Positions 7,563 through 20,988 of a stretch of DNA of 47,452 nucleotides are shown here, one piece after another; the first letter of the stretch is position 1; each line of letters opens with the position of its first letter. The position numbers and the translations under genes are program-made. The stretch comes from an uncultured Planctomycetia bacterium (GTDB taxonomy: Bacteria; Omnitrophota; Gorgyraeia; JAFGHF01): the NCBI GenBank assembly GCA_964586605.1, contig CAZPGX010000003.1, positions 1-47,452 of the forward strand, written 5' to 3'. The notes beneath the pieces are model-generated. The model was not told the DNA's origin and searched no databases. It saw only the letters and a program-made list of their open reading frames with translations.

Positions 7563-9107
7563 TTATCGCGTAAAACAAGAAATGGTAAAATCCTTTACCG
7601 GCATCCCTTTCAATTCCCCGGAACTCATTGAATCCAGTTTTATTTCTTTAAACCCCTGGGAAAAAGCCTTACTCTCTTTTAGGTTGGAGACAAATTTACT
7701 AACTATTCCTATCTCGCGCACGGCGCTTTCGTGATAGGCTGTGCCTTTCAAAACTAAAGAACGGTTAACCTTATTCCCTTTTGAAAGCTTATCGTTAAAG
7801 TTGAGGTTCGTTAACCATACTCCGGGCGGAATCAGCTTAGGCAACTCATTAAATTCATCGGTCAAAAAAACCTTTTTGTTTATCATCTGGTCTAAAACAG
7901 AAAGTTTGGCTTCAAGTCCTTTTTTTGTCTTTTCCAGCTCTTCGTAAGAAAAAGAAGCTATGGACAAACTAATTTGAGGCCTCACAGAAAGCACTTTTTC
8001 CAATTCTTTCTTTTCTCTGCGGACAGGAAAACCCATTGCCAGGTGCAAAATCAAAAGGCCCATACCGGCAAAGGTCAGGGCGCGAAATAGCGCCAGCTTG
8101 ACCCTGGGGGTAAACTGGAGAGGCTCCTTTGTTGCCACGGCCTTCGGCTGGACCTCGCGAACCTGGCAGAGATTTACCTCTGTGCCGGCTAAAATCCTCT
8201 GGCGTAAGGCCAGGCCAATGGCTATGGCCATATCAAGGGAAGGCAGGGCCTTCTGGGGTTTTACTGCCTTGGCAGGATCGGCTTTCTCCACGGAGAGCTT
8301 TAACTCTTGCGCTAATTTTTTATCCCAGTCCTTAAGTTCTACTTCGCCGCAAAGCAGTATTTTGTCAATCGTCTCGGAAGGAAAAAGTTTTTCATAGTAA
8401 TCCAGGGACATCCGGATTTCATTAAGCAAACTATCAAAGAGTAGTTCTTCTTCTAAAGGAAGCGAAACATCCCGCGTAAGATAACAAATTTTATCTTTTA
8501 CTATATTAATATCCGCCATTCCATAGTCAACATCTACAATAGCGGTGTGTTTCTCCTTCTCCAGCTGATTGCTCAAGGCAAGAAGCCTGACCAGGCTAAA
8601 AGAAGCCGGCTCTAAGGCCGAAACTGTAAGCTGGGCCTGTTCAAAGAGAGAAAGATACCTCTGGGCTATGCCTCTTTTTACGGCTACAAAAGTCACATCC
8701 ATCTTATTGGTATCTTTACTCTTGGGCAAGACCACATGAAAACCCCAAACCAGCTCTTCTATCTTAAAAGGAATGTATTTTTTGGCCTCAAATTTTATCG
8801 CGGTCTCCCACTCCGATTTCGGTATCAAAGGCATCTGGAAATATCTAACCAGGACATCCTTGCCGGCAATGGCGGCAACTACCTCCTTGGCGCTGATTCT
8901 ATTTTCCTGCAGGGCCCTGGTAATGGCCTGCACCGTGGCCTGCCTTCGGGATGCATCATCTGAGTGCGAAGCAGCCTGAATCTCTACCCTGGCAAATTTA
9001 AGCAACTGTGCCCCAAAAAGCACTCCTTTTACCTGGGCAACATAAACATTCTTTGCCCCCACATAGATGCCTGTGGTAGTCTGTAAATTCAAGTTGAGCT
9101 TAGTCAC
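7563..9107 (-). CDS. PilM-PilN fusion (GspL-like): actin-like ATPase-fold domain + TM + periplasmic PilN-like domain
   Basis: 514 aa with a GTG start. The first ~310 aa resemble PilM/FtsA-like proteins (IAGKDVLVRYFQMP, AKKYIPFKIEE, ALEPASFSL). This is followed by a TM (LTFAGMGLLILHLAMGF) and a PilN-like tail. Confidence 0.75.
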   Translation of the reverse strand: MTKLNLNLQTTTGIYVGAKNVYVAQVKGVLFGAQLLKFARVEIQAASHSDDASRRQATVQAITRALQENRISAKEVVAAIAGKDVLVRYFQMPLIPKSEWETAIKFEAKKYIPFKIEELVWGFHVVLPKSKDTNKMDVTFVAVKRGIAQRYLSLFEQAQLTVSALEPASFSLVRLLALSNQLEKEKHTAIVDVDYGMADINIVKDKICYLTRDVSLPLEEELLFDSLLNEIRMSLDYYEKLFPSETIDKILLCGEVELKDWDKKLAQELKLSVEKADPAKAVKPQKALPSLDMAIAIGLALRQRILAGTEVNLCQVREVQPKAVATKEPLQFTPRVKLALFRALTFAGMGLLILHLAMGFPVRREKKELEKVLSVRPQISLSIASFSYEELEKTKKGLEAKLSVLDQMINKKVFLTDEFNELPKLIPPGVWLTNLNFNDKLSKGNKVNRSLVLKGTAYHESAVREIGIVSKFVSNLKESKAFSQGFKEIKLDSMSSGELKGMPVKDFTISCFTR

Positions 9108-9331
9108 TTCTTATTTTCCTTTGCTTTATTGCTCTTTTTCTCTTCACTAGGCGGCTCGGCTTCCCTGATTTGCGAACGCAGCCAAGCGTCAACAGCCCTT
9201 TTATCAAACCTCCAGACATGCCCCACCTTAATGCCGGAAATCTTCTTGGCATGCAACCAGTTATAAATGGTCTGCTTCTGAAGTTTAAGATAAGCGGCTA
9301 GTTCGTCTACATCCATAAGCCTACTCATCAA
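9104..9331 (-). CDS. Excisionase-type helix-turn-helix (HTH_17-like) DNA-binding protein with Lys/Glu-rich tail
   Basis: 75 aa. DVDELAAYLKLQKQTIYNWLHAKKISGIKVGHVWRFDKRAVDAWL matches the MerR/excisionase-family HTH pattern. Its stop codon overlaps the GTG of the PilM-N gene (GTGA). Confidence 0.7.
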   Translation of the reverse strand: MMSRLMDVDELAAYLKLQKQTIYNWLHAKKISGIKVGHVWRFDKRAVDAWLRSQIREAEPPSEEKKSNKAKENKK

Positions 9332-9421: not shown

Positions 9422-9457
9422 AAAAAAAGCCCCACACCACCTTCTAGCAGTGTAGGG
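9422..9457 (-). terminator. Rho-independent terminator after the PilX-like gene
   Basis: The minus strand reads CCCTACAC-(12 nt loop)-GTGTGGGG followed by CTTTTTTTG. Confidence 0.65.
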
Positions 9458-9847: not shown

Positions 9848-9876
9848 ATTTTAATCGCACTTTGACAAAATGTCAA
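9848..9876 (-). promoter_or_regulatory. Sigma70-like promoter of the PilX-like gene
   Basis: The minus strand reads TTGACA-17 bp-TAAAAT. The -35 is one arm of the perfect palindrome TTGACA-TTT-TGTCAA. Confidence 0.55.
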
Positions 9877-9883
9877 GAAAAAT

Positions 9884-11440
9884 TTATCTGTTTGTAGAGA
9901 CGCCCCATTGGGGCGTCTCTACCAATTGCCGTTTCAGCAGCTTGCCCGTAGGAGTCTTGGGCAGCTCTTTCCTAAACTCAATTAAACGGGGAATCTTGTA
10001 ACTGGCGAGCTTATCCCTACAAAACTGTAGAATCTCTTTTTCGCAAAGACAGCTGCCATTTTCTAAAACTATAAAGGCAGCAGGTGCCTCTCCCCTGATT
10101 TTATCTTTTTTTCCCACAACCGCCGCTTCTTTTATCTCGGGGTGGGCTTTTAAGACGTTCTCTATCTCTGTTGGATAGACGTTCATCCCGCGGCTTAAAA
10201 TCATCTCTTTCTTGCGCCCTGCTATATAGATATAGCCATCGTTGTCTATCTTGGCCATATCTCCGGTAAAAAGCCACCCCCCCCTGATTGCCTTTTTGGT
10301 CTCTTCAGGGCGATGAAAATAGCCTAGCATTACATTGGGGCCTTTAACAATCAATTCGCCGATTTCTCCGCAAGGCGCCTCGCTTTCGTCTTCCCTAACC
10401 ACCTTAACCTCCACCCCGGGAAGCGGCAACCCTATAGAGCCGGGTTTGCGGAGCCCCTGCAAAGGGTTAAGAGAAACTACAGGAGAGGCCTCGGTCAGGC
10501 CATAACCTTCCAAAAGGACAACCTTTGAAAACCTTTGCTCAAAGGTTTTCAAAGTCTCTGTGCTTAAAGGGGCTGCTCCCGAGATGCAGACCTTAACGCG
10601 CAAAAAGACCCTTAAGAATGGCGGAAGGGTTAAGTTCTTCAAGATATCAAATAGATGCGGTATGCCTACAATAATGGTTATACGGTTGAAGAGAATACTG
10701 CGTAAAACCTTTTGAAAGGGTTTAAGCGACTTAATAATCACAGACCTGGCGCCAGCGTAAATAGGGACAAATATACAAACCATCAAGGTAAAAGAATGGA
10801 ACATCGGCAAGATAAGCAAAAACCGCTCAGAAGGACTGATCTCCAGGGCCGAAACAGAGGAAATGACATTGGATGAGAGGTTGGCGTGGGAAAGCATTAC
10901 CCCTTTGGGGGAACCGGCGGTCCCTGAAGTATAAATCAGCAAAGCAATGTCCTCAGGGTTTATCTCGGGAAGGTATTCATCGCCAGCGGAAAAGGCAATC
11001 TCTGGGGCATAAAGAAAACCATCCGCCTTTTTATCCGTCAGAATGATTTGTTTTAGATCCAGTAGCTCCTTTGCCCCTTTTTGCCCCTCAACGAGCATCT
11101 GCTCTAAAACTTGTAAAAAATCAGAAGAACTTATCAATACCCTCGCGCCGCAATCGCCGAGGATATAGCGCAGTTCACTCAGGGTCAAGAAGACATTTAG
11201 GGGAACGCAGACTGCTCCGGCTTTTAAGATAGCAAAAAGGGCAATCACGAACTCCGGGCAGTTGTTCATCAGGATTGCCACTTTCTTGCCCTTTTTTACT
11301 CCCAGTTGCTGCAGCTTGAAAGCCAGTTGCTCTGCCCGGGTATTGAGCGTGCGAAAGCTTAAAGCCCCGCCTGCGTAGATTAGAGACTTACGCCAGGAAA
11401 ACTTCTTTGCGCTTTCCTCTAATAACCGCACCAGGTTCAT
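9884..11440 (-). CDS. AMP-dependent acyl-CoA synthetase / long-chain fatty-acid--CoA ligase
   Basis: Shows the AMP-binding motif YTSGTAGSPKGV, plus GYGLTE, TGDMAKIDNDGYIYIAGRKKE and PKTPTGKLLKR. The start is set at MNLVRLL, which makes an ATGA overlap with the upstream gene. Confidence 0.88.
   Translation of the reverse strand: MNLVRLLEESAKKFSWRKSLIYAGGALSFRTLNTRAEQLAFKLQQLGVKKGKKVAILMNNCPEFVIALFAILKAGAVCVPLNVFLTLSELRYILGDCGARVLISSSDFLQVLEQMLVEGQKGAKELLDLKQIILTDKKADGFLYAPEIAFSAGDEYLPEINPEDIALLIYTSGTAGSPKGVMLSHANLSSNVISSVSALEISPSERFLLILPMFHSFTLMVCIFVPIYAGARSVIIKSLKPFQKVLRSILFNRITIIVGIPHLFDILKNLTLPPFLRVFLRVKVCISGAAPLSTETLKTFEQRFSKVVLLEGYGLTEASPVVSLNPLQGLRKPGSIGLPLPGVEVKVVREDESEAPCGEIGELIVKGPNVMLGYFHRPEETKKAIRGGWLFTGDMAKIDNDGYIYIAGRKKEMILSRGMNVYPTEIENVLKAHPEIKEAAVVGKKDKIRGEAPAAFIVLENGSCLCEKEILQFCRDKLASYKIPRLIEFRKELPKTPTGKLLKRQLVETPQWGVSTNR
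9894..9922 (-). other. Perfect 13-bp stem / 3-nt loop hairpin inside the last 10 codons of the acyl-CoA ligase
   Basis: GTAGAGACGCCCC-ATT-GGGGCGTCTCTAC is read directly from the sequence. The stop codon lies 8 nt beyond the hairpin. Confidence 0.8.
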
Positions 11441-11700
11441 TTTTGCATCTGGGGCAATAATTCTTGCACCGCCGAAACTACCTGTTCCCACTTCTCCGGG
11501 TCATGAATAGTAAACTTCTGCTTTCTCTTCCAACCTTCCTTCTTTTTCTGCCAGAGATACAAACAGACCTGCTTGCGCCCCCAGGATTCAACTAACACGG
11601 CGGCTGCCCACCAGCCAAAACCTTTGCTTAAAGTACGGTAAGCGACTGCCCGTAAAGGGGGCTCTATGGGAATCCGTTCTTCTCTTCTTTCACCTTCCAT
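11437..11700 (-). CDS. Hypothetical Trp/Lys-rich small protein (87 aa)
   Basis: The ORF shows ATGA coupling to the downstream ligase. I recognise no family. Distinctive segment: GFGWWAAAVLVESWGRKQVCLYLWQKKKEGWKRKQKF. Confidence 0.5.
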   Translation of the reverse strand: MEGERREERIPIEPPLRAVAYRTLSKGFGWWAAAVLVESWGRKQVCLYLWQKKKEGWKRKQKFTIHDPEKWEQVVSAVQELLPQMQK

Positions 11701-11713
11701 AACTACACCTCGT

Positions 11714-11914
11714 TTATTTCCTTAACCCTATCGTGTAATCTCCGTCTTGTTGTTTTAGCCTCACATGCCCTTCCCTGGCAAGCCACCCTAAGCTCATCAA
11801 AATAATATCCCGCGGCTTATCCAGGCCGGAAACTAAAGCGGAAAACGTGCTTTGGCCGTGCTCGTCCAAAAAGTGCCAAATCTCTCCGGCTACTATTCCT
11901 AATTCTGTAATCAT
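11714..11914 (-). CDS. Small winged-helix protein (DUF2582-like)
   Basis: 66 aa. GEIWHFLDEHGQSTFSALVSGL...LMSLGWLAREGHV matches my recollection of the DUF2582 wHTH pattern (..GWLaRE..). Confidence 0.55.
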   Translation of the reverse strand: MITELGIVAGEIWHFLDEHGQSTFSALVSGLDKPRDIILMSLGWLAREGHVRLKQQDGDYTIGLRK

Positions 11915-12147
11915 GACGGTTCGCTCCTTTCATTATAACTCTTACACCTTGGGCAAACAGAAAGCCCTTTATGCTTGCTATCTACGTAAATATAGGTGCA
12001 GATGGAACATTGCCAGACTGATTTAAGGTCTATGGTATCTTTTGAAGGAAGCTTTATTTTTGAAAATGCAAACCAGGCAACAAAAATGCCGAAAATAGAA
12101 ATCAATAAATACAAGAATATCGCTGTTTCAAACTGCAGTTTTATCAT
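11911..12147 (-). CDS. Membrane-anchored zinc-ribbon protein (78 aa from the ATGA-coupled start)
   Basis: Has an N-terminal TM (AIFLYLLISIFGIFVAWFAF) and a C-terminal CxxC...CxxC ribbon (CSICTYIYVD...CPRCKSYNE). Confidence 0.55.
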   Translation of the reverse strand: MIKLQFETAIFLYLLISIFGIFVAWFAFSKIKLPSKDTIDLKSVWQCSICTYIYVDSKHKGLSVCPRCKSYNERSEPS

Positions 12148-12767
12148 TTGACATCCAGGGTTAATTTTATTCTCTGCCACTGCTCTTTTTGCTCAGAGCT
12201 CGGTGCAAAGCGCCATTTTCTTAAGTATCTTGCCAGAACCGCATCTATTTCGGGGTTGCCGCAGGTCTTTACGTTTATTACCTGCCCTGCCAAACCATCA
12301 CCCAGGACACATACCTCAAACACGGCATAATTGCCTTTGAGCTGATAGTGCTGCCACTCCGGGTATTCAGGAAAAGGCGGCCGAAAAAGTATCTGCCGCT
12401 TTGGGCCCTGCTCTTGCGTTAAAACGGGGCTTCGGCCAAAAAAAGGCATCTTTTTTTCCGGGGCATCTACGTCAATAAAGGTATCGGCAGCTAAGGCCTT
12501 TTTCTTAAACTGCAATAATGTATACGGCCTTCCCCTAAAATAACTCTTTGCCTGGATATCGGCTTCTGCGGGAAGTTCTACAACCCCCTTTCGGGGGTCT
12601 GTCAGCGAAACCCTGTCGTTCAATATTGAACCTAAAAAAATAACCGAGGAATACTGCCTTGGCTTTAGGCCGGTCCTTAGATTGACGATTGAAACCGAAG
12701 AGAGCCAAAAAAGGTGCCAAAAGAAAGAGATTAACAGCGCTAGGCCCAACTGGCGGCTAATAACCAT
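12144..12767 (-). CDS. TonB/TolA-like energy-transducer candidate (N-terminal TM + TonB-C-like domain)
   Basis: 207 aa with a TM (LGLALLISFFWHLFWLSSV). The C-terminus PPFPEYPEW...GNYAVFEVCVLGDGLAGQVINVKTCGNPEIDAVLARYLRKWRFAP fits the TonB_C pattern. It sits directly downstream of exbB-exbD. Confidence 0.6.
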   Translation of the reverse strand: MVISRQLGLALLISFFWHLFWLSSVSIVNLRTGLKPRQYSSVIFLGSILNDRVSLTDPRKGVVELPAEADIQAKSYFRGRPYTLLQFKKKALAADTFIDVDAPEKKMPFFGRSPVLTQEQGPKRQILFRPPFPEYPEWQHYQLKGNYAVFEVCVLGDGLAGQVINVKTCGNPEIDAVLARYLRKWRFAPSSEQKEQWQRIKLTLDVK

Positions 12768-12771
12768 ATGT

Positions 12772-13173
12772 TTATTGTTCGGGTTGATTGGTAGCTATGT
12801 TAATCTGGGTTAGGCCCGCCTCACGGGACATATCCCAAATCTGGACCACCTTACCTAAAGAGGCCTTACGGTCGGCTTTAATCAAAAGGGGACGCTCTTG
12901 CCTCGCCGCTTTCTCCAGATAAACTTTCAGTTCTTTTAAAGTAAGCAGGCGGCTGTTCAGATAAACCAGGCCCTCGGCGCTAATGACAATGACCAGGTTT
13001 TTCTCCTGAATCACCTCGCTGGTCAGGGCCTTAGGCAGATTTATTTTAATCCCCGGCTGAAAGATATAGCTGGAAGTGAGCATAAAAAATATCAAAAGAA
13101 GAAACACCACATCGATCAACGGCGCAATATCTAACTGGCCTCTTTCGAATTCTACATGCCTTCTAAATCTCAT
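12772..13173 (-). CDS. exbD: ExbD/TolR family biopolymer transport protein
   Basis: 133 aa. DIAPLIDVVFLLLIFFM is followed by a periplasmic domain, typical of ExbD/TolR. Confidence 0.85.
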   Translation of the reverse strand: MRFRRHVEFERGQLDIAPLIDVVFLLLIFFMLTSSYIFQPGIKINLPKALTSEVIQEKNLVIVISAEGLVYLNSRLLTLKELKVYLEKAARQERPLLIKADRKASLGKVVQIWDMSREAGLTQINIATNQPEQ

Positions 13174-13175
13174 CT

Positions 13176-13802
13176 TTAGTATTGCTCCCCTCTTTGAGAA
13201 AGGACATTGATTAATTCGGCGGCGCTTCTGTCCATTTCTACAATAAAGTTTTTCACCCGGCTGACCAGATAATTATAGGCAACAAAAGTAGGTATGGCTA
13301 CCATCAATCCTGCTGCTGTAGTGATTAAGGCCTCCCAGATACCTCCGGCTAAATTGGCGGGGCTTACCGAATGCATAGCGGTAGCCTTCTCTTGAATAAT
13401 CTGAAACGCCCTGACCATGCCCGTAACTGTGCCCAACAGACCCAAAAGCGGCGAGATATGCGCAATGGTCGCCAAGGCGCCCAGGTTTTTTTCCAGGCGC
13501 GGCACCTCATAAATTCCCGCATCCTCTATTGCCTCTTTTATCTCTTGCCGCGAACCATCGTGCTTCAAGATACCCGCCTTGACAATATGGGCAACGGGGC
13601 CGGGAGTCTTCTGGCATAAATCAACGGCTTCCTTAATCCGGTTACTCTTCAAAGCAGAGTAGATACTCTCCATAAATTTATCAATATTGATTCTTGCCCG
13701 ATGTAAATGGTAAAGCCTCTCAATAACTACTGCCAGGGCCACAATTGAGCAAAGAATAATCAAGTACATCAGCGGCCCGCCTTTTTGAATTATATTCCAC
13801 AT
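13176..13802 (-). CDS. exbB: MotA/TolQ/ExbB proton-channel family protein
   Basis: 208 aa with three TMs. The conserved segment is LATIAHISPLLGLLGTVTGMVRAF...GGIWEALITTAAGL. Confidence 0.88.
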   Translation of the reverse strand: MWNIIQKGGPLMYLIILCSIVALAVVIERLYHLHRARINIDKFMESIYSALKSNRIKEAVDLCQKTPGPVAHIVKAGILKHDGSRQEIKEAIEDAGIYEVPRLEKNLGALATIAHISPLLGLLGTVTGMVRAFQIIQEKATAMHSVSPANLAGGIWEALITTAAGLMVAIPTFVAYNYLVSRVKNFIVEMDRSAAELINVLSQRGEQY

Positions 13803-13816
13803 AGTATTCCCCTCCG

Positions 13817-14134
13817 TTAACAGAAAAATATAAAGACCAACAAGACTATAATTATAATTACGGAAATAATATAAAAATCGTTAAAATACAGAAAGTCTCT
13901 TAATCTTTCCGCCCAGCTGTATCTGCCGCCGGCTAGGGGCTCTTCCTTGGACCTGGCAAGTTCAGGAATCCCTTGGGCTTTTATTTGCTCAATCTGGTCC
14001 TTTCTAAACCTCAGGATTGCCCCTCCCAGCCGATAGGCGGGAATCCTGCCGCTATCTACTAATCTCCTCAAATCCCCCGTTGAGATACCAAGATATTTCG
14101 AGACCTCTCTGACACTGAGTAATTTCTCGGACAT
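13817..14134 (-). CDS. Tail-anchored excisionase-type HTH (HTH_17-like) protein
   Basis: 105 aa. The N-terminal LSVREVSKYLGISTGDLRRLVDSGRIPAYRLGGAILRFRKDQIE is HTH_17-like. A single C-terminal TM is present (FYIISVIIIIVLLVFIFFC). Confidence 0.65.
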   Translation of the reverse strand: MSEKLLSVREVSKYLGISTGDLRRLVDSGRIPAYRLGGAILRFRKDQIEQIKAQGIPELARSKEEPLAGGRYSWAERLRDFLYFNDFYIISVIIIIVLLVFIFFC

Positions 14135-14149
14135 TACCTTCCTTTTTGC

Positions 14150-14713
14150 TTACTTTATTTTTTCGCTGGCGATCCAGGCATCTACTTTAGCGCGTTCGAA
14201 CTTCCAGCCATTGCCGGCCTTCTCCGCCGGGATTCTCCCCTTCTGGGCCCAGTCTAATACCGAAGCGGCATCCACCTCTAGATACTTCGCCAGGTCCTCT
14301 ACGTTCATCAGCATCTCATTGATTGTAGAGCGTTTAAATCCTGTCTCCCTGGCATCCATCTGGCATTTTCCCCTAAAGATTGCCCCTTCGGCTATGCTTA
14401 AGCTGGGCGTACGTATATCTCCCACTAAATGCGCGGTCCCGCTAAGGCTAAGCCGGTTGGAAGCGGCCACGTTACCGGAAACCCTGCCTGAGATAATGAT
14501 GTCTTCGCCCATAATATCAGCCTCGACCCGGGCATTCTGGCTTACCGTCAGGCTTCCTTTGGTATCCAGCTTTCCCTCAAAGTTGCCATTGATGCGCAAA
14601 TTCACCGGGTCCTTGAAGGCAAGCGTCCCCTGCATACTGGCATTCACATCCAACACCTTCTCCTGCTCCACCTTTACCTCCGGCTGCAGCTTTTTCTTGC
14701 TCCTAAAAGCCAT
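14150..14713 (-). CDS. Bactofilin (DUF583 beta-helix) fused to a C-terminal excisionase-type HTH domain
   Basis: 187 aa. The core GTLAFKDPVNLRINGNFEGKLDTKGSLTVSQNARVEADIMGEDIIISGRVSGNVAASNRLSLSGTAHLVGDIRTPSLSIAEGAIFRGKCQM is a classical bactofilin repeat. The C-terminus MNVEDLAKYLEVDAASVLDWAQKGRIPAEKAGNGWKFERAKVDAWI is HTH_17-like. Confidence 0.75.
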   Translation of the reverse strand: MAFRSKKKLQPEVKVEQEKVLDVNASMQGTLAFKDPVNLRINGNFEGKLDTKGSLTVSQNARVEADIMGEDIIISGRVSGNVAASNRLSLSGTAHLVGDIRTPSLSIAEGAIFRGKCQMDARETGFKRSTINEMLMNVEDLAKYLEVDAASVLDWAQKGRIPAEKAGNGWKFERAKVDAWIASEKIK

Positions 14714-15755
14714 CCTTCACCTCCCCTGTTTTATACTTCTTGTCCTTTTTCACTAGAACTCTCTCCACTTTTAGGTTCGGTTCTACCTCCAGATTCAGGT
14801 CCGAAACTACGCCCCTTTTATACAGTTGATATCCCAGGCCCGCCACCATTGCCGCGTTATCCTGGCAAAGGGTCTGTTCGGGAAAATAGACCTTAATTGC
14901 CTGTTCCTCTAGATTCGCAGTCAACGCTTCTCGTAAACGTTGATTTGCGATTACTCCCCCGCCGACAACAAACTGCTTAACTTTCATCAGGCTACAGGCA
15001 GTGAGCGACTTATCAACTAAAACATCTACTACTGCCTCTTGGAAACCTGCGGCAACATCCCCAAGCGTAGCGTTTGGGTGTTTATCTTTTGCATAATATA
15101 ACACTGCTGTTTTTAAACCACTGAAGCTAAAGTCTAGGCTGCCTCTTTCCAAATAGGAGCGCGGGAATTTTATCTTACCCTTATCGCCTCTTTTAGCCTT
15201 CTTCTCAATAACTGGCCCGCCGGGATAGCCTAGATTTAAAATCTTGGCTACCTTATCAAAGGCCTCGCCTGCGGCATCATCGCGCGTCCTGCCCAAAACC
15301 TGCCAGTGCAAGTAATCCTTTACATAAAAAAGGTTTGTATGGCCTCCGGAAACTACCAGGCCCACAAAAGGAAATTGTGGTTTCTTTTTCCCTAAGAGAG
15401 GCGCGTATAAATGGGCCTGGATATGGTTTATTCCCACCAGGGGCACGGGCAAAGCTAAACTTAAACTCTTAGCCAGGGAAAGGCCGATTAAAAGCGCCCC
15501 AACCAACCCCGGGCCATAGACAGCCGCTACTAAATCGATATCGCTTAAACTTACCCTGGCCTCATCCAACGCCTGCTCTAAAACATAATTAATCAGCTCA
15601 ACATGGTAGCGGGTGGCTATCTCAGGGACTACCCCGCCATATCTTTTATGCAAATGCAGGCTGGAAGAAACAACATTAGAAAAAACATTGCGCCCGTTTT
15701 CTACTACCGAAACTGCTGTCTCATCACAGGAGGTCTCAATACCTAATACTATCAT
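14703..15755 (-). CDS. tsaD: tRNA N6-adenosine threonylcarbamoyltransferase (Kae1/TsaD)
   Basis: 350 aa. MIVLGIETSCDETAVSVV, HVELINYV, SGGHTNL and DNAAMVA are hallmark TsaD motifs. Confidence 0.92.
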   Translation of the reverse strand: MIVLGIETSCDETAVSVVENGRNVFSNVVSSSLHLHKRYGGVVPEIATRYHVELINYVLEQALDEARVSLSDIDLVAAVYGPGLVGALLIGLSLAKSLSLALPVPLVGINHIQAHLYAPLLGKKKPQFPFVGLVVSGGHTNLFYVKDYLHWQVLGRTRDDAAGEAFDKVAKILNLGYPGGPVIEKKAKRGDKGKIKFPRSYLERGSLDFSFSGLKTAVLYYAKDKHPNATLGDVAAGFQEAVVDVLVDKSLTACSLMKVKQFVVGGGVIANQRLREALTANLEEQAIKVYFPEQTLCQDNAAMVAGLGYQLYKRGVVSDLNLEVEPNLKVERVLVKKDKKYKTGEVKDGF

Positions 15756-15763
15756 ATTTTAAG

Positions 15764-16537
15764 CTATTTTATCAACTCCGAAATAAAAACGAATTCAATG
15801 CCCTCGCGGCCCATTATGGCAGCTTCTTCTTTGAGCACCTCAAGCGTCTTAGACTTGGCGTGGCCGATGCCCACGGCCTGGCCTGCGGTTTTAGCAAATT
15901 CGCTCAGTTCTCTCACCTGCCCCCGGATATATTCTTTATCGTCTAAATTATCCAGAAAAACATCTCTTGAAGCAAATTTAAGTTTTAGCTCTTGGGCTAA
16001 CTGCTGGCAGACAGATTTATCCATTACTAAATTATCCAAGAAAAAAAGGCCTTTTTCTTTCAATTCAGCAAAGATTAACGACATAATTCGCTTATCTTTC
16101 GTAGCCCGCGAACCCATGTGGTTGGAAACCCCCTTGGCATAAGGCACAGAATCCAAAGCGCGTCTGGTAATCTTGGAAATTTCCTCGTCCGACATCCGGG
16201 AAGTAATCGTATCTTTCTCCAGGCCTATCTTTCTTCCCCTTTTCTCGGGCTCAAGGGGCAGATGCAGGATGACCTCCTGATTCAACCCATTGGCTATCCG
16301 GGCAATTTTCCTTGAGTATCTCAAATTAGGCAAGATAGAGATAGTTAGCGGAATATCCATCTCTTTTAACAGCTTTACGCAATACAAATTATATCCCCAG
16401 TCATCAAGCACTATTGCCACTTTCGCCTTGGGGACCTCTTTAAGCCCCAGACACCCCTTGCGCAGACAAAAGACCAGCAAGGTGACTGCCGCTAAAACAA
16501 CTACAGATAAAATTAAAATATTTTTCTTAATTTTCAC
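15764..16537 (-). CDS. Divergent polysaccharide deacetylase (YibQ-like)
   Basis: 257 aa with an N-terminal TM, then KVAIVLDDWGYN...ISILP...GVSNHMGS, typical of the divergent polysaccharide deacetylase family. Adjacency to ctp is common for this family. Confidence 0.75.
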   Translation of the reverse strand: MKIKKNILILSVVVLAAVTLLVFCLRKGCLGLKEVPKAKVAIVLDDWGYNLYCVKLLKEMDIPLTISILPNLRYSRKIARIANGLNQEVILHLPLEPEKRGRKIGLEKDTITSRMSDEEISKITRRALDSVPYAKGVSNHMGSRATKDKRIMSLIFAELKEKGLFFLDNLVMDKSVCQQLAQELKLKFASRDVFLDNLDDKEYIRGQVRELSEFAKTAGQAVGIGHAKSKTLEVLKEEAAIMGREGIEFVFISELIK

Positions 16538-17849
16538 CTCTGTAAACCTTAATCCCTTTTAATAAGTCCACAGCGTGCACCAGCTGGTTGTCGTAAAAAC
16601 CCTGTTCTTCCATAAATCCTTTCAGCGTGGTCCGGACTTGCCCTGTCTGGGGTTTGGTTTTCTCTTCTTTTGCTTTTTTCTCTTGCTGCTCTTCCTCAAC
16701 CTTTTCAAATATTTTCCCTGCTTCTTCTTCCTCTACCTTAAGCGCCTCTTCCAGGCTCTCTTCTTTAAACTTAACTTCTACGTCGGGTTCGATGCCTTTC
16801 TCGTGAATACATATTCCGCTGGGAGTGTAATACTTACTGGTGGTCAGCCGCAGCGCCGAGCCGTCCATTAGAGGCACGACTGTCTGCACAGAGCCCTTGC
16901 CAAAGGTCTTTGTGCCTAAAAGCACACCTCTTTTGTGGTCCTTGATTGCCCCGGCGACAATCTCCGAGCCTGAAGCCGAACCGCCGCTAATCATCACCAC
17001 CAAAGGATACTCGCGGTGAGCGCCCCTGCCCCCTGAGCGGAATTCAAAATCCTGTCCTCCTGCCCGTCCGCGGGTGGATACTATCACCTCACCGGCCGGG
17101 ATAAATTTCTCACTCACCTTCACTGCCGAATCCAGCAGCCCTCCGGGATTATTGCGCAAATCTAAAATCAAGCTGTCCAGCCCTGCTGCCTCCAACTCGC
17201 GCAGTGCCTTTTCTAAATCCTGGGGGCTTCGTTCCTGAAATTCCGAAAGCCTGACATAGCCGATGTTATCCTCAAACAATTTTGCCTTGCGGATACTCTT
17301 GACCTTGATGATATCCCTGGTAATCGTAAAGTCCAGGAGTTTCTCTGCTCCCTCGCGCATTACGGTTATGGTCACCTCTGTTCCCGGCTCACCGCGAAGC
17401 TTCTTTACCGCCTCCATCAGGGTGATATCTTTGGTGACCTCATCCTCTATCTTGACTATCTTGTCATTGGCCTTTAAGCCGATATGATAGGCCGGGGTAT
17501 CGTCTATCGGGGCAATGATTGTGAGCAGCCCATCTTTAATGGCGATCTGAATCCCTAAACCGCCGAATTCCCCTTCTGTCTCCACCTTGACTTCATTGTA
17601 TGCCTCGGGGGTCAGGAACTGGCTGTAATCGTCCAGTGAACGCAGCATCCCTTTTAAGGCGCCGTAGATTAAGTCCTTATATTTGGCCTCTTCCACATAA
17701 TCCGAGCGAATCATTACCAGGGCGTCGGTAAACAACTCTATCTCCTGATAAAAATCATCTTCCTTTTGCTCCTCGCCGATTACCCCTTGGGCATGAAGAA
17801 TGAAGATTGCACTAATTACCACTAACGACGCAACCAAGACTTTACGCAT
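16527..17849 (-). CDS. ctp: S41 carboxy-terminal processing peptidase
   Basis: 440 aa with a signal peptide and a PDZ region (GLKANDKIVKIED). The S41 catalytic region is present (NPGGLLDSAV...SASGSEIVAGA...GTKTFGKGSVQ). Confidence 0.9.
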   Translation of the reverse strand: MRKVLVASLVVISAIFILHAQGVIGEEQKEDDFYQEIELFTDALVMIRSDYVEEAKYKDLIYGALKGMLRSLDDYSQFLTPEAYNEVKVETEGEFGGLGIQIAIKDGLLTIIAPIDDTPAYHIGLKANDKIVKIEDEVTKDITLMEAVKKLRGEPGTEVTITVMREGAEKLLDFTITRDIIKVKSIRKAKLFEDNIGYVRLSEFQERSPQDLEKALRELEAAGLDSLILDLRNNPGGLLDSAVKVSEKFIPAGEVIVSTRGRAGGQDFEFRSGGRGAHREYPLVVMISGGSASGSEIVAGAIKDHKRGVLLGTKTFGKGSVQTVVPLMDGSALRLTTSKYYTPSGICIHEKGIEPDVEVKFKEESLEEALKVEEEEAGKIFEKVEEEQQEKKAKEEKTKPQTGQVRTTLKGFMEEQGFYDNQLVHAVDLLKGIKVYRGEN

Positions 17850-19275
17850 CCTTTCCCTCCTCTAATTTTTTCTTTAATAACTTATTGGCCAGCTCTGGAT
17901 TGGCCTGGCCGCGGCTGGCGCGCATAATCTGGCCGACCAAAAAACCAAAGGCATTGGCCTTTCCCCCGCGATAATCCTCAACCGGCTTGGGGTTGTCCTT
18001 AACTACTTGTTCAATAATCCTATCAAGCTTACCCGAGTCGCTAATCTGTGAAAGGCCTCTATCCCTGACAATATCACCGGGCTCTTTTTTACCGTCTAAG
18101 ACTTCGGGTAAAATCTCTTTGGCAATCTTGCCGCTAATCTCACCGGTCTCAATCATCTTTAAAAGAGTCACAAAGGTTTTGGGTTTAAGTTTAAGATGAC
18201 GCACTTCTATATTGCGGGCATTTAGCTGGGCAAGGAGTTCACTCATAATCCAGTTGCTGATTACTTTAGGGCTATTATAGATTTTAACACAATTTTCAAA
18301 ATATTGGCTTAAATATTTATCGGCGGTCAAAACATTGGCATCATATTCGGGGATCTTATATTCGCGCACAAAGCGACTGGCCTTGGCTTGAGATAATTCC
18401 GGCAGGGACTTCTCAATCTCCTTGATATAGGCCTCACTTAAAATAAAGGGCACTAAGTCGGGTTCGGGAAAATAACGGTAATCATGGGCCTCTTCTTTGC
18501 TGCGCATAACTTCAGTCTTGTTCTCTTCGCTATTCCAAAGGCGGGTCTCCTGGACTATTCTTTTTTTCTGGTCTAGGAGCTTACCCTGGCGCTTGATTTC
18601 ATACTCCAGGGCCTGTTTTACGCCTTTGAAGGAATTCATATTTTTAAGTTCTACTTTCTCACCCAATTCTTTTGAGCCTTCTTGGCTTAGTGAGATATTG
18701 GCATCGCATCTTAGGGAACCTTCTTCCATATTGCAGTCGGAAACCTCTAAATATTTTAAGATTCTCTTTAGACGCACCAGATACTCATTGGCCTCATCGG
18801 CTGACGCAATCTCCGGTTCGCTGACAACCTCTAAAAGAGGCATCCCGCAACGATTGAAGTCTACCAGGCTCTGGCCTTTTTCGTGAATCAGTTTTCCGGC
18901 ATCCTCCTCAAGGTGCGCGCGGCGGATGCGGATTCGCCTGGGGCCGGTCCCTGTATCTATAGAAAGAGAGCCGCCGCTGGCAACAGGCAAATCGTATTGA
19001 GAAATCTGAAAATTCTTGGGCAGGTCCGGATAAAAGTAATTCTTGCGGTCAAACTTAATCAATTTGGAAATCTTACAATCCAGGGCTAGGGCTGCCTTAA
19101 TAGCAAGCTTTAAGGCCTCTTCGTTTAGAACGGGCAGGCTTCCCGGAAGGCCTAAACACACAGGACAACTCTGTGAATTGGGCCGCTGGCCGAATTCGGT
19201 GGAGCAGCCGCAGAAACACTTACTTCTGGTAGCTAAATGCGCATGCACCTCTAAACCGATAACAACTCTATACAT
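17842..19275 (-). CDS. gatB: Asp/Glu-tRNA(Asn/Gln) amidotransferase subunit B
   Basis: The start is set at [14 protein letters not shown], the canonical GatB N-terminus, giving an 8-nt overlap with gatA. A C-terminal YqeY/GatB domain is present. Confidence 0.93.
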
Positions 19276-20716
19276 TTGGCCTTTTTTTGTGGTGTTCTGT
19301 GTTTTGTTCAAAAGCAAAGGCTGTGCGCAACATGGTCTGTTCATCAAAGGCGCGGGCAATAACTTGCAGGCCTACAGGCAGGCCTTCGCTGTTTAGTCCG
19401 CAAGGCAGGGATATTGCCGGCAGCCCCGCTAAATTAACTGATATAGTATAGATGTCCGATAAATACATTGCCAAGGGATCATCCGTGCGTTCACCAATCT
19501 TAAAGGCAGCTGTAGGTGATGTCGGCGTAATCAGACAATCTACCTTTTTGAAGGCCGCATCAAAGTCTTCTTTGATCAGCCGGCGCACCTTCAAGGCCCG
19601 CAGATAATAGGCATCATAATAGCCGCTTGATAAGGCATAGGTGCCTAAAATAATCCGCCGCTTAGCCTCCTCGCCAAGGCCCTCACCTCTTGTCTTAAAA
19701 TACATCTCGATTAAATCCGAAGGTTTGGCTCTCCTGTGCCCATACTGCACGCCGTCAAAGCGGGCCAGGTTTGAGCTGGCCTCGGCTGTGGCCAGGATAT
19801 AATAATCCGCTACCGCATATTCTGTATGCGGAAGTGAAATCTCTTTTACCTTAGCGCCCAGGCCTGTTAAGACATCCAGGGCCGCGGCAACCTGCGTTTT
19901 TACCTCATTATCTAATCCTTTGGCAAAATATTCCTTTGGGATGCCTATTTTCAAACCCTTGACGTCAGGCTTTAAATTCTTGGTGTAATCAGGCACTTTC
20001 TCCTCTGCACAGGTAGAATCCATCAGATCATGCCCGGAAATCACATTTAAAAGCAGTGCGGCATCCTCTACATCTTTGGCAAACGGGCCGATCTGGTCTA
20101 GAGACGAGGCAAAGGCAATCAGACCATAACGGGAAACCCGCCCATAAGTCGGCTTCAAGCCCACCACCCCGCAAAGAGCAGCCGGTTGGCGGATAGAGCC
20201 GCCGGTATCCGAACCCAGGGCCAGAATAGTCTCATCCGCGGCCACTGATGCAGCCGAGCCGCCGCTTGAGCCGCCGGGAATGCGCTTTAGGTCCCAGGGA
20301 TTATGCGTGGGCCCGTAGCAAGAGGTCTCACAGGATGAGCCAAAGGCAAATTCATCCATATTGGCCCGGGCTAAGATTAGCGCGCCCTCTTGTTTCAATC
20401 GACTGACAACCGTGGCATCATAGGGCGGTTTGAACCCTTTCAATATCCTTGATGAGCAGGTGGTATCCTGGCCTGCTACGCAGATATTATCCTTGATTAC
20501 AACCGGGACGCCAAAGAGTTTACCCTTGCGGGGACCTTTCTCCAGTTGCTCGCATTGGGCTAAGACATCCTGTTTATCCACAAGGCAGAGCGCCTTAACC
20601 TTTTTTTCCGTCCGCTCAATTCTCTTTAACAGGTCTTCGGCAACCTCTTTGACCGAGGTCTTTTTCTTGGCGATTAGATTGGTAAGTTCGTGGGCGGTGA
20701 GTTTATGCAGTTCCAT
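19268..20716 (-). CDS. gatA: Glutamyl-tRNA(Gln) amidotransferase subunit A
   Basis: 482 aa with the amidase signature [13 protein letters not shown]...[13 protein letters not shown]. Confidence 0.93.
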
Positions 20717-20988
20717 TATTCGATTACTTTCGGCACGCTAAAACTGCTGTCCTTCTTTGCCGGGGCATTCTTCAGCACTTTCTCTACGGGTAAAGATGGC
20801 TTGACCTTATCTTCGCGAAAGACATTCTTCAATGGCAAGACATGGCTCATCGGCTCAACTTTGTCCACCTTGAGCTCCTTGAGCTTCTCAATGTAGCCTA
20901 ATATATCGCTTAATTGTTTGGTGAGTTTTTTCTTCTGGGAGACGTTTAGGTCAATCCTGGCAAGCTTCGCTACATACTCTATATCCAT
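20716..20988 (-). CDS. gatC: Asp/Glu-tRNA amidotransferase subunit C
   Basis: 90 aa. VAKLARIDL...L..IL.Y...L is typical of GatC. A TAATG junction links it to gatA. Confidence 0.85.

Follow-up and report, generated by a model that had tools for sequence, protein, structure and literature searches.

Scaffolds that hold DNA-binding domains at the membrane and envelope motors driven by the proton motive force (PMF) are the described systems with which the present locus has to be compared. In the RacA–DivIVA system, a MerR-like helix-turn-helix (HTH) is attached to a membrane-associated scaffold, and an S-x3-H motif in the transmembrane anchor defines TonB and TolA. Almost nothing is known of the cell biology of the Omnitrophota, a group of uncultivated and often very small bacteria. 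In Bacillus subtilis, the bactofilins BacE and BacF recruit the HTH protein BacR (YhbD) to the membrane and lower its DNA binding, constituting a membrane/nucleoid switch (PMC13649987). We analyzed a 47,452-nt stretch, hereafter the window, of contig CAZPGX010000003.1 (assembly GCA_964586605.1), deposited as an uncultured Planctomycetia bacterium and placed by GTDB in the Omnitrophota; homologues of its proteins carry the names Candidatus Omnitrophica or Omnitrophota. A preliminary description of this DNA had read nine consecutive genes, running from a bactofilin–HTH fusion through an ExbB/ExbD motor to an acyl-CoA ligase, as a single module. We consider it highly probable that the nine genes are the junction of three independently conserved units, designated A, B, and C, inside a long, tightly packed, single-strand array of housekeeping genes. 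In all likelihood, the adjacency of the three units goes back to a rearrangement in one clade and is by itself no sign of shared function. The genes concerned, with the evidence for their assignment, are as follows.

14703 to 20988, minus strand: gatC, gatA, gatB, ctpA (S41 protease), a yibQ-type deacetylase gene, and tsaD (Pfam)
14150 to 14713, minus strand: bactofilin–HTH_17 fusion, BacHTH, first gene of unit A (Pfam, AlphaFold2, Foldseek)
13817 to 14134, minus strand: HTH-TM, tail-anchored HTH_17 protein, second gene of unit A (Pfam, TIGR01764)
13176 to 13802, minus strand: ExbB/TolQ-type proton channel, first gene of unit B (Pfam MotA_ExbB)
12772 to 13173, minus strand: ExbD/TolR protein, second gene of unit B (Pfam ExbD, NCBIfam)
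12144 to 12767, minus strand: divergent TonB/TolA-type transducer of 207 aa, third gene of unit B (TonB_C family tests, PDB profile matches)
11911 to 12147, minus strand: ZnR-TM, 78 aa, fourth gene of unit B (sequence, family alignment)
11714 to 11914, minus strand: DUF2582 winged-helix protein of 66 aa, fifth and facultative gene of unit B (Pfam)
11437 to 11700, minus strand: p87, 87 aa, sixth gene of unit B (conservation, AlphaFold2, Foldseek)
9884 to 11440, minus strand: long-chain fatty-acid-CoA ligase, FadD-like, unit C (Pfam, NCBIfam)

Gene order in related genomes divides the block. Three sets of loci were compared, comprising 84 anchored on the bactofilin fusion (L001–L084, ±10 kb each), three anchored on ExbB orthologues of about 70% identity (L085–L087), and 80 anchored on p87 (L088–L167), the last from a metagenome scan in which a p87 alignment found 206 stretches encoding a relative. 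A word-index search for homologues of the TonB-like protein yielded only 14 relatives, all from the clade of the window, and ExbB and p87 served as anchors instead. Loci were annotated using our own longest open reading frame (ORF) calls, phmmer, and profile hidden Markov models (HMMs) made from the window proteins. At E≤1, these profiles detected ExbB in 10 and ExbD in 9 of the 84 bactofilin loci. Among the 68 informative ones, which have at least 1.5 kb of DNA past the HTH-TM gene, ExbB comes next in nine, and 59 have neither ExbB nor ExbD within 10 kb; thus, the co-occurrence of the bactofilin–HTH fusion with exbBD, which the preliminary description had proposed as a check of its module, is absent from most relatives. 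The nine ExbB-adjacent loci come from the window's nearest relatives, at a BacHTH identity of at least 58%. Divergent ExbB or ExbD proteins overlooked in the remaining bactofilin loci were considered and rejected, as the same HMM search within 10 kb revealed none.

The motor cassette is likewise found apart from the bactofilin pair. In L085–L087, ExbB follows uvrA and a tetratricopeptide repeat (TPR) protein of about 815–820 aa and is followed by ExbD, the TonB-like protein, and ZnR-TM, with p87 in two of the three; no bactofilin, HTH-TM, or ligase gene accompanies these cassettes. ExbB, ExbD, TonB-like, and ZnR-TM occur in this order in 28 of the 30 p87 loci in which the DNA upstream of p87 spans 2.7 kb or more and which are therefore informative for the complete cassette. 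The approximately 815-aa protein, which is exported and carries TPR_6/YfiO-like repeats, is encoded directly upstream of exbB in 27 p87 loci and is the conserved upstream neighbor of the cassette outside the window's clade; the 47-kb window holds no homologue of it. Among the p87 loci, only L092 and L093 have BacHTH and HTH-TM ahead of the cassette, and only L088, L091, L093, and L096 have the ligase after p87; all of these show the highest p87 identities to the window (at least 71%). The ligase therefore adjoins the cassette in this clade only. The preliminary description had also asked whether the nine genes are syntenic in any related genome. They are so in close relatives (L001, L005–L012, L092, and L093), so that the adjacency was inherited within one clade and is not unique to the window genome, and it is confined to that clade. 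In L001, a short deacetylase-family gene of 149 aa (11672–12121) separates p87 from the ligase.

Gene spacing does not set the nine genes apart. The nine ORFs lie on the minus strand where the preliminary description had placed them, and it was right that spacers of at most 15 nt or overlaps separate them. The range of 11437–14713 assigned to them covers eight, the ninth reaching 9884. Within the block, spacers measure 15 nt (bacHTH to HTH-TM), 14 nt (HTH-TM to exbB), 2 nt (exbB to exbD), 4 nt (exbD to the TonB-like gene), and 13 nt (DUF2582 to p87), while ATGA overlaps join the TonB-like gene to ZnR-TM, ZnR-TM to DUF2582, and p87 to the ligase, whose ATG lies over the p87 stop. The same packing continues upstream, where tsaD overlaps bacHTH by 11 nt, yibQ and tsaD are 8 nt apart, ctpA and yibQ overlap by 11 nt, gatB and ctpA overlap by 8 nt, and gatA and gatC likewise abut or overlap their neighbors in the ORF list. 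The first real gap precedes gatC and measures 211 nt. In the window as a whole, 33 of 50 junctions span at most 15 nt (median 5.5 nt), as counted from a rough gene call of 51 ORFs that skipped gatA; 48 of these 51 calls, and all convincing ORFs of at least 110 aa, lie on the minus strand. Since tight packing is common window-wide and extends into tsaD, ctpA, and gatCAB, spacing defines no nine-gene unit, and the boundaries drawn around it were arbitrary. At most, it delimits 15 consecutive genes whose functions are plainly mixed. A sequence scan of the spacers among the nine genes revealed no promoter- or terminator-like site, as had been reported, and these spacers are too short to hold one. 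The nine genes are probably co-transcribed with gatCAB, ctpA, yibQ, and tsaD. In a compact single-strand genome, tight spacing is no evidence of a functional module.

What survives of the original composition is its parts. Pfam backs the gene identities proposed earlier, namely Bactofilin plus HTH_17, HTH_17 with a hydrophobic tail, MotA_ExbB, ExbD, DUF2582, and AMP-binding. Six of the genes belong to a conserved cassette of a motor and small proteins and the bactofilin pair is conserved as well, but the two are conserved independently of each other, and the ligase stands apart. Judged from gene order and sequence, exbB, exbD, the TonB-like gene, ZnR-TM, the facultative DUF2582 gene, and p87 constitute a genuine conserved cassette independent of the bactofilin pair and the ligase. 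Start/stop overlaps of 4–8 nt among its last four genes recur in distant loci.

The motor proteins of unit B belong to known families. ExbB matches Pfam MotA_ExbB (PF01618) at 115.2 bits against a cut-off of 22.9, and ExbD matches PF02472 at 95.4 bits against 25.4. The best NCBIfam models for the two are TolQ and TolR, below equivalog cut-offs; ExbB scores 119.9 bits with TolQ (TIGR02796, cut-off 221) and 79.8 bits with ExbB (TIGR02797, cut-off 206.2), and ExbD scores 69.3 bits with TolR and 66.2 bits with ExbD_2. The transmembrane aspartate of ExbD, D21, lies within the segment APLIDVVFLLLIFF. The 207-aa protein from the window reaches 12.8 bits with Pfam TonB_C (cut-off 24.6) and 16.3 bits with TIGR01352 (cut-off 27.1). 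At the family level, 13 of 13 members match Pfam TonB_C at E≤1 (best 7e-8; window copy 0.17), the seven best PDB profile matches are all TonB, and S14 and H18 of the S-x3-H motif in the N-terminal transmembrane segment are invariant in 13 sequences. These family-level matches point to a divergent member of the TonB family, in line with the earlier TonB-like call.

Three small proteins complete the cassette. ZnR-TM has a single N-terminal transmembrane helix followed by a CxxC...CxxC zinc ribbon, which is probably cytoplasmic because basic residues follow the helix. Its family comprises 73 members with a conserved WQCxxC..YVDS..CPRCGSYN signature, and its gene is the next one after the TonB-like gene in 56 of the 60 p87 loci informative on this point. 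Its true start is the ATG at 12147, which overlaps the TonB-like stop, rather than the GTG at 12180. The DUF2582 protein (PF10771, 46.9 bits against a cut-off of 24.2) matches only uncharacterised nuclear magnetic resonance structures (PDB 2l02, E 4.6e-4, and 2l01), and its gene is present in 21 of the 28 complete cassettes. The third protein, p87, has no Pfam, NCBIfam, or PADLOC match. It is rich in tryptophan, lysine, and arginine, and 38 of its 87 columns do not vary among lineages whose TonB-like proteins retain only 27% identity.

An AlphaFold2 model of p87, built from an alignment of proteins from the representatives search, has a predicted local distance difference test (pLDDT) score of 93.4 and shows a four-stranded antiparallel sheet with a C-terminal helix. 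Its best Foldseek neighbors are PC4 homologues and Pur-alpha (5a4n, 4bg7, and 3nm7; TM-score 0.5–0.64, weak E values of 0.05–0.3), with NTF2-like folds close behind, so a PC4-like fold is proposed tentatively from the model. At 50% identity, the wider p87 family forms 139 clusters. Its domain, as yet unnamed, is fused to Shedu (SduA_C) nucleases, a STAND/AAA NTPase, and an M29 peptidase (among P0266, P0313, P0379, P0392, and P0416) and stands alone in Bathyarchaeia; distant relatives (L168–L170) lie in gene contexts unrelated to ExbBD. These fusions and contexts indicate that p87 is a general, widespread small domain of which one subfamily only is tied to ExbBD. Two further observations concern the surroundings of p87. 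A histone-deacetylase-family gene follows it in 14 loci (e.g., 8311–9243 of L118), and the window has none. In L100, L102, L104, L106, L107, L110, L111, and L121, an ORF of about 63 aa, about 550 nt past p87, matches the BacHTH profile; the match is assumed to concern the HTH_17 part, which would make it another small HTH_17 gene beside the cassette.

Unit A is conserved far beyond the window. BacHTH contains a Bactofilin domain (PF04519, 89.8 bits against a cut-off of 27.9) and an HTH_17 domain (PF12728, 41.5 bits against 27; TIGR01764, 37.3 against 28.8). More than 1100 relatives were found, with both Pfam domains in 120 of 120 among the matches listed, and the protein is encoded in 478 species-representative Omnitrophota genomes. 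Its AlphaFold2 model (mean pLDDT 81) consists of a beta-helix (residues 20–119), a disordered linker, and a winged HTH (133–186). The beta-helix matches BacA (2n3d) and the Thermus bactofilin (6rib) in Foldseek at TM-scores of 0.82–0.90, and PDB profile matches are to 2n3d and 6ria. The C-terminal domain superposes on BldC (6ama/6amk; TM-score 0.73–0.79, root-mean-square deviation 1.6 Å) and also matches the RacA DNA-binding domain (5i44), several excisionases, and MerR-family regulators. At the sequence level, matches to BldC and RacA are non-significant (E 0.3–0.8), and BacHTH scores 15.7 bits with the BldC family model NF033787 (cut-off 77), so the likeness is one of fold alone. In the window, the N-terminus MAFRSKKK is akin to the bactofilin membrane-targeting consensus MFSKKKK (PMC12448750); other clades have MLKRDK at this place.

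The partner of BacHTH is a 105-aa protein with an N-terminal HTH (HTH_17, 47.1 bits in Pfam and 45.5 bits in TIGR01764, above the respective cut-offs of 27 and 28.8) and a C-terminal transmembrane segment. HTH-TM is encoded directly after bacHTH in 78 of the 84 loci, L057 being the only clear exception, and the hydrophobic segment is present in all 78. A DFxYFNDFY motif, at least 90% conserved across 80 sequences, opens this tail anchor (13817–13900, minus strand). Such conservation suggests a specific membrane partner, for which MgtC, encoded beside bacHTH and HTH-TM in most genomes, is one candidate. The order gatA-gatB-ctpA-(yibQ)-tsaD-bacHTH-HTH-TM is kept in practically all 84 loci, with mgtC between tsaD and bacHTH in 61 of 75 and larB after HTH-TM in 48 of 71. 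The window lacks both mgtC and larB, and its tsaD overlaps bacHTH directly (14703–14713), which points to a recent local rearrangement. Many metagenome-assembled genomes titled "uncultured Planctomycetia bacterium" (L005, L022, L024, L028, and others) carry this Omnitrophota-type gatCAB-ctpA-tsaD-bacHTH-HTH-TM locus, and the taxonomy in their titles is probably incorrect or very coarse.

An anti-phage defense system, either a Zorya-like PMF motor with DNA effectors or MADS, was also considered for the block and rejected. A PADLOC scan of ten proteins, the nine genes plus a downstream 75-aa HTH_17 protein (HTH75), gave just sub-threshold mad1 (MAD1, NF047737) matches to the HTH_17 domains, at 50.1, 29.5, and 65.8 bits against a cut-off of 80; no other match was returned among the ten proteins, and thus nothing for ExbB, ExbD, or the remaining block proteins.

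On these grounds, separate mechanisms can be proposed for the two units. In unit A, BacHTH would polymerize on the membrane, to which it probably binds, and each subunit would present one winged HTH of the BldC/RacA/excisionase type on a flexible linker. HTH-TM would act as a bitopic client or partner, with its cytoplasmic HTH_17 held by the C-terminal transmembrane segment. Together, the polymer and HTH-TM could either fix DNA to the membrane or withhold a DNA-binding domain from the nucleoid. In unit B, the ExbB/ExbD stator would turn proton flow into work on the membrane-anchored TonB/TolA-like transducer, which would span into the periplasm. ZnR-TM, DUF2582, and p87, whose genes appear translationally coupled, would be cytoplasm-facing accessory or regulatory subunits, with the membrane zinc ribbon docking the winged-helix DUF2582 and p87 as a possibly PC4-like nucleic-acid binder. 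Judging from the predicted folds, a nucleic-acid ligand for these small proteins is plausible. A further-reaching proposal is that unit B is an undescribed Tol/TonB-type machine whose stator is coupled via the zinc ribbon to nucleic-acid-binding DUF2582 and PC4-like p87, linking envelope energization to DNA or RNA through trans-envelope signaling to gene expression or through nucleic-acid handling, while BacHTH and HTH-TM separately provide a phylum-wide nucleoid–membrane tether. We regard this combined proposal as speculative and, taken as a whole, unlikely to hold in full.

Several points weigh against the three-unit interpretation and the roles sketched above. The adjacency of units A and B is stable within the window's clade, over BacHTH identities of 58–100% and with HTH-TM and exbB only 14 nt apart, and co-transcription together with a clade-specific functional link between the two may hold nonetheless. 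The loci were picked by rank of similarity to the query, so that the counts describe a biased sample of the phylum, and their annotation depends on our own longest-ORF calls and HMMs. The window's transducer on its own falls under the Pfam and NCBIfam TonB_C cut-offs. DNA binding by the HTH_17 domains, DUF2582, and p87 is suggested by fold and family, and Foldseek E values for small domains are weak (0.05–0.3). Finally, neither the window nor the flanks contain TolB, Pal, or a TonB-dependent receptor, whose presence would help to choose between a Tol-like role and TonB-type uptake; TolB and Pal are also absent around L085–L087.

This choice bears on the alternative that survives best, in which unit B is a classical TonB uptake energizer, and ZnR-TM, DUF2582, and p87 are an unrelated regulatory or selfish cassette traveling alongside. 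The transducer aligns with TonB_C and with TonB proteins of known structure, no tolB or pal gene is found nearby, DUF2582 is missing from 7 of 28 cassettes, and the occurrence of the p87 domain in unrelated contexts and fusions (Shedu, STAND NTPase, M29 peptidase, and archaea) means that it is not intrinsically part of a TonB system. However, no TonB-dependent receptor is encoded in the window or flanks, the top models for ExbB and ExbD are TolQ and TolR, the conserved upstream neighbor is the exported TPR_6/YfiO-like protein, and ZnR-TM and p87 keep their order and start/stop overlaps with the TonB-like gene despite only 27% identity in the latter. Because of the exported TPR neighbor and the TolQ/TolR-leaning scores, a Tol-like role in envelope integrity or division is favored over receptor-mediated uptake, and we consider the uptake alternative possible but rather unlikely.

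An alternative that we judge improbable is clade-specific coupling, whereby the cassette lost its TPR neighbor and was recruited behind bacHTH and HTH-TM, and the motor now receives its position, for instance at the division site, from the bactofilin scaffold. The adjacency is indeed kept while identity drops to 58% for BacHTH and 76% for ExbB, the HTH-TM–exbB spacer is 14 nt, and the window lacks the TPR gene that 27 other loci have upstream of exbB. Nevertheless, plain inheritance of a single rearrangement predicts the same retention within one clade; no domain gain, fusion, or other sequence mark of co-adaptation was seen; and the clade is not uniform in its content of mgtC and the deacetylase gene, indicating that shuffling continues. 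The reading advanced initially, in which all nine genes encode one PMF-energized, bactofilin-positioned, and DNA-coupled envelope complex for chromosome anchoring, DNA translocation, or division-site remodeling, can draw on the tight spacing and overlaps without a promoter or terminator, on synteny of the nine genes in L005–L012, L092, and L093, and on several putative nucleic-acid-binding domains beside a PMF motor, but it is rejected by the very synteny it invoked and is highly improbable, as ExbBD is absent near bactofilin–HTH in 59 of 68 informative loci, the cassette lacks bactofilin in L085–L087 and in all p87 loci beyond the window's clade, the ligase is not with the cassette elsewhere, and equal packing reaches tsaD, ctpA, and gatCAB, of clearly unrelated function.

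The downstream side of the block is marked by the ligase and the signals that follow it. The ligase scores 312.9 bits with Pfam AMP-binding and 502.5 bits with NCBIfam NF004837 (cut-off 476) and is, by these family matches, an ordinary FadD-like long-chain acyl-CoA ligase. The strongest promoter-like site of an 11-kb scan (9876–9848) lies straight after its stop codon and likely represents the downstream boundary of the unit; the first convincing terminator downstream of the block is at 9457–9430. Past the ligase, the order is the promoter-like site, a pseudopilin gene, the terminator, HTH75, pilMN, and the remaining type IV pilus cluster:

9848 to 9876, minus strand: promoter-like site TTGACA-17-TAAAAT, 11/12 matches
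9430 to 9457, minus strand: intrinsic terminator with a 12-bp stem and T-run, after the pseudopilin gene (sequence)
9104 to 9331, minus strand: HTH75, 75-aa HTH_17 gene of excisionase type (TIGR01764, 52.3 bits)
7563 to 9107, minus strand: fused pilM-pilN gene of the pilus cluster

HTH75 sits past the terminator and overlaps the start of the fused pilM-pilN gene by 4 nt; pilO, pilQ, pilB, pilC, and pilin genes follow, and the order HTH75 then pilMN is also found in L001, L010, and L011. HTH75 may be a dedicated regulator or a member of the pilus operon. Elsewhere, the window encodes housekeeping functions (ValRS, NadC, BirA, KsgA, GH5, LeuA-like, aspartate kinase, CstA, iPGM, Dcd, RNR, patatin, and AcrB-HlyD-TolC-TetR). 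GC skew is negative along the whole 47 kb, and the sole match in Rfam and tRNA scans of the window is a tRNA-Ala at 1–76.

The component families, namely bactofilin, HTH_17, MotA/ExbB, ExbD, and TonB, are known. Provisionally, the phylum-wide bactofilin–HTH_17 fusion with its tail-anchored HTH partner appears to be undescribed, as does the ZnR-TM/DUF2582/p87 trio on a Tol/TonB-type cassette; a literature search found no paper naming bactofilin together with Omnitrophota. A bactofilin with one DNA-binding domain per subunit and a membrane HTH partner, present in hundreds of species, would newly connect a cytoskeletal scaffold to DNA or gene regulation and extend the recent BacR–bactofilin observation in Bacillus. 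Similarly, a Tol/TonB motor with three small conserved cytoplasm-facing proteins suggests subunits or regulators lacking in model organisms.

Compared with described machines, unit B shares with Tol-Pal a MotA/TolQ/ExbB channel, an ExbD/TolR protein with the transmembrane aspartate, an S-x3-H transducer with a TonB/TolA-type C-terminus, and the order Q-R-A; moreover, the exported TPR_6-rich protein beside the cassette in relatives recalls CpoB (CpoB/YbgF). Unlike in Tol-Pal, neither tolB nor pal lies in the unit B neighborhood, equivalog cut-offs are unreached, the TPR protein is about 815 aa long, upstream in relatives, and absent from the window, and ZnR-TM, DUF2582, and p87 are conserved with unit B without Tol-Pal counterparts. 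With TonB-ExbB-ExbD, unit B has in common the three protein families, a TonB_C-like C-terminus, and an expected PMF-driven mechanism, but it has no nearby TonB-dependent receptor and no clear proline-rich spacer, and the window copy scores under the TonB_C cut-offs. To our knowledge, the ZnR-TM/DUF2582/p87 trio is part of no TonB system; TtpC, the accessory of Vibrio TonB2, is a protein of another kind.

For the combination as a whole, no ParA/ParB/PadC, Glt, or ZorAB-type Pfam or PADLOC match was found in the locus or window that would recall ParABS–bactofilin (BacNOP-PadC), Agl-Glt, or Zorya. Unit A resembles the Myxococcus xanthus BacNOP-PadC-ParABS system in tying a bactofilin scaffold to DNA organization (PMC5703909), but with no ParA, ParB, or PadC at the locus, the link to DNA would be direct, via the fused HTH. 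An N-terminal basic/hydrophobic peptide reminiscent of the MFSKKKK motif and a bitopic candidate client with a cytoplasmic N-terminal part recall Caulobacter BacA-PbpC (PMC12448750), although the candidate client in unit A is a 105-aa HTH protein without a periplasmic enzyme domain. The closest analogies of unit A appear to be RacA-DivIVA and B. subtilis BacR-BacEF. As in the latter, an HTH DNA-binding protein is encoded beside the bactofilin gene (PMC13649987); unlike there, the bactofilin carries one HTH as a covalent fusion and the protein with the other HTH has its own membrane anchor, the domains are HTH_17 rather than DUF4004, and unit A belongs to another phylum. With RacA-DivIVA and BldC, unit A shares the fold of the BacHTH C-terminal domain, which superposes on BldC and the RacA DNA-binding domain, but its scaffold is a bactofilin instead of DivIVA, and its HTH is fused to that scaffold rather than carried on a separate protein.

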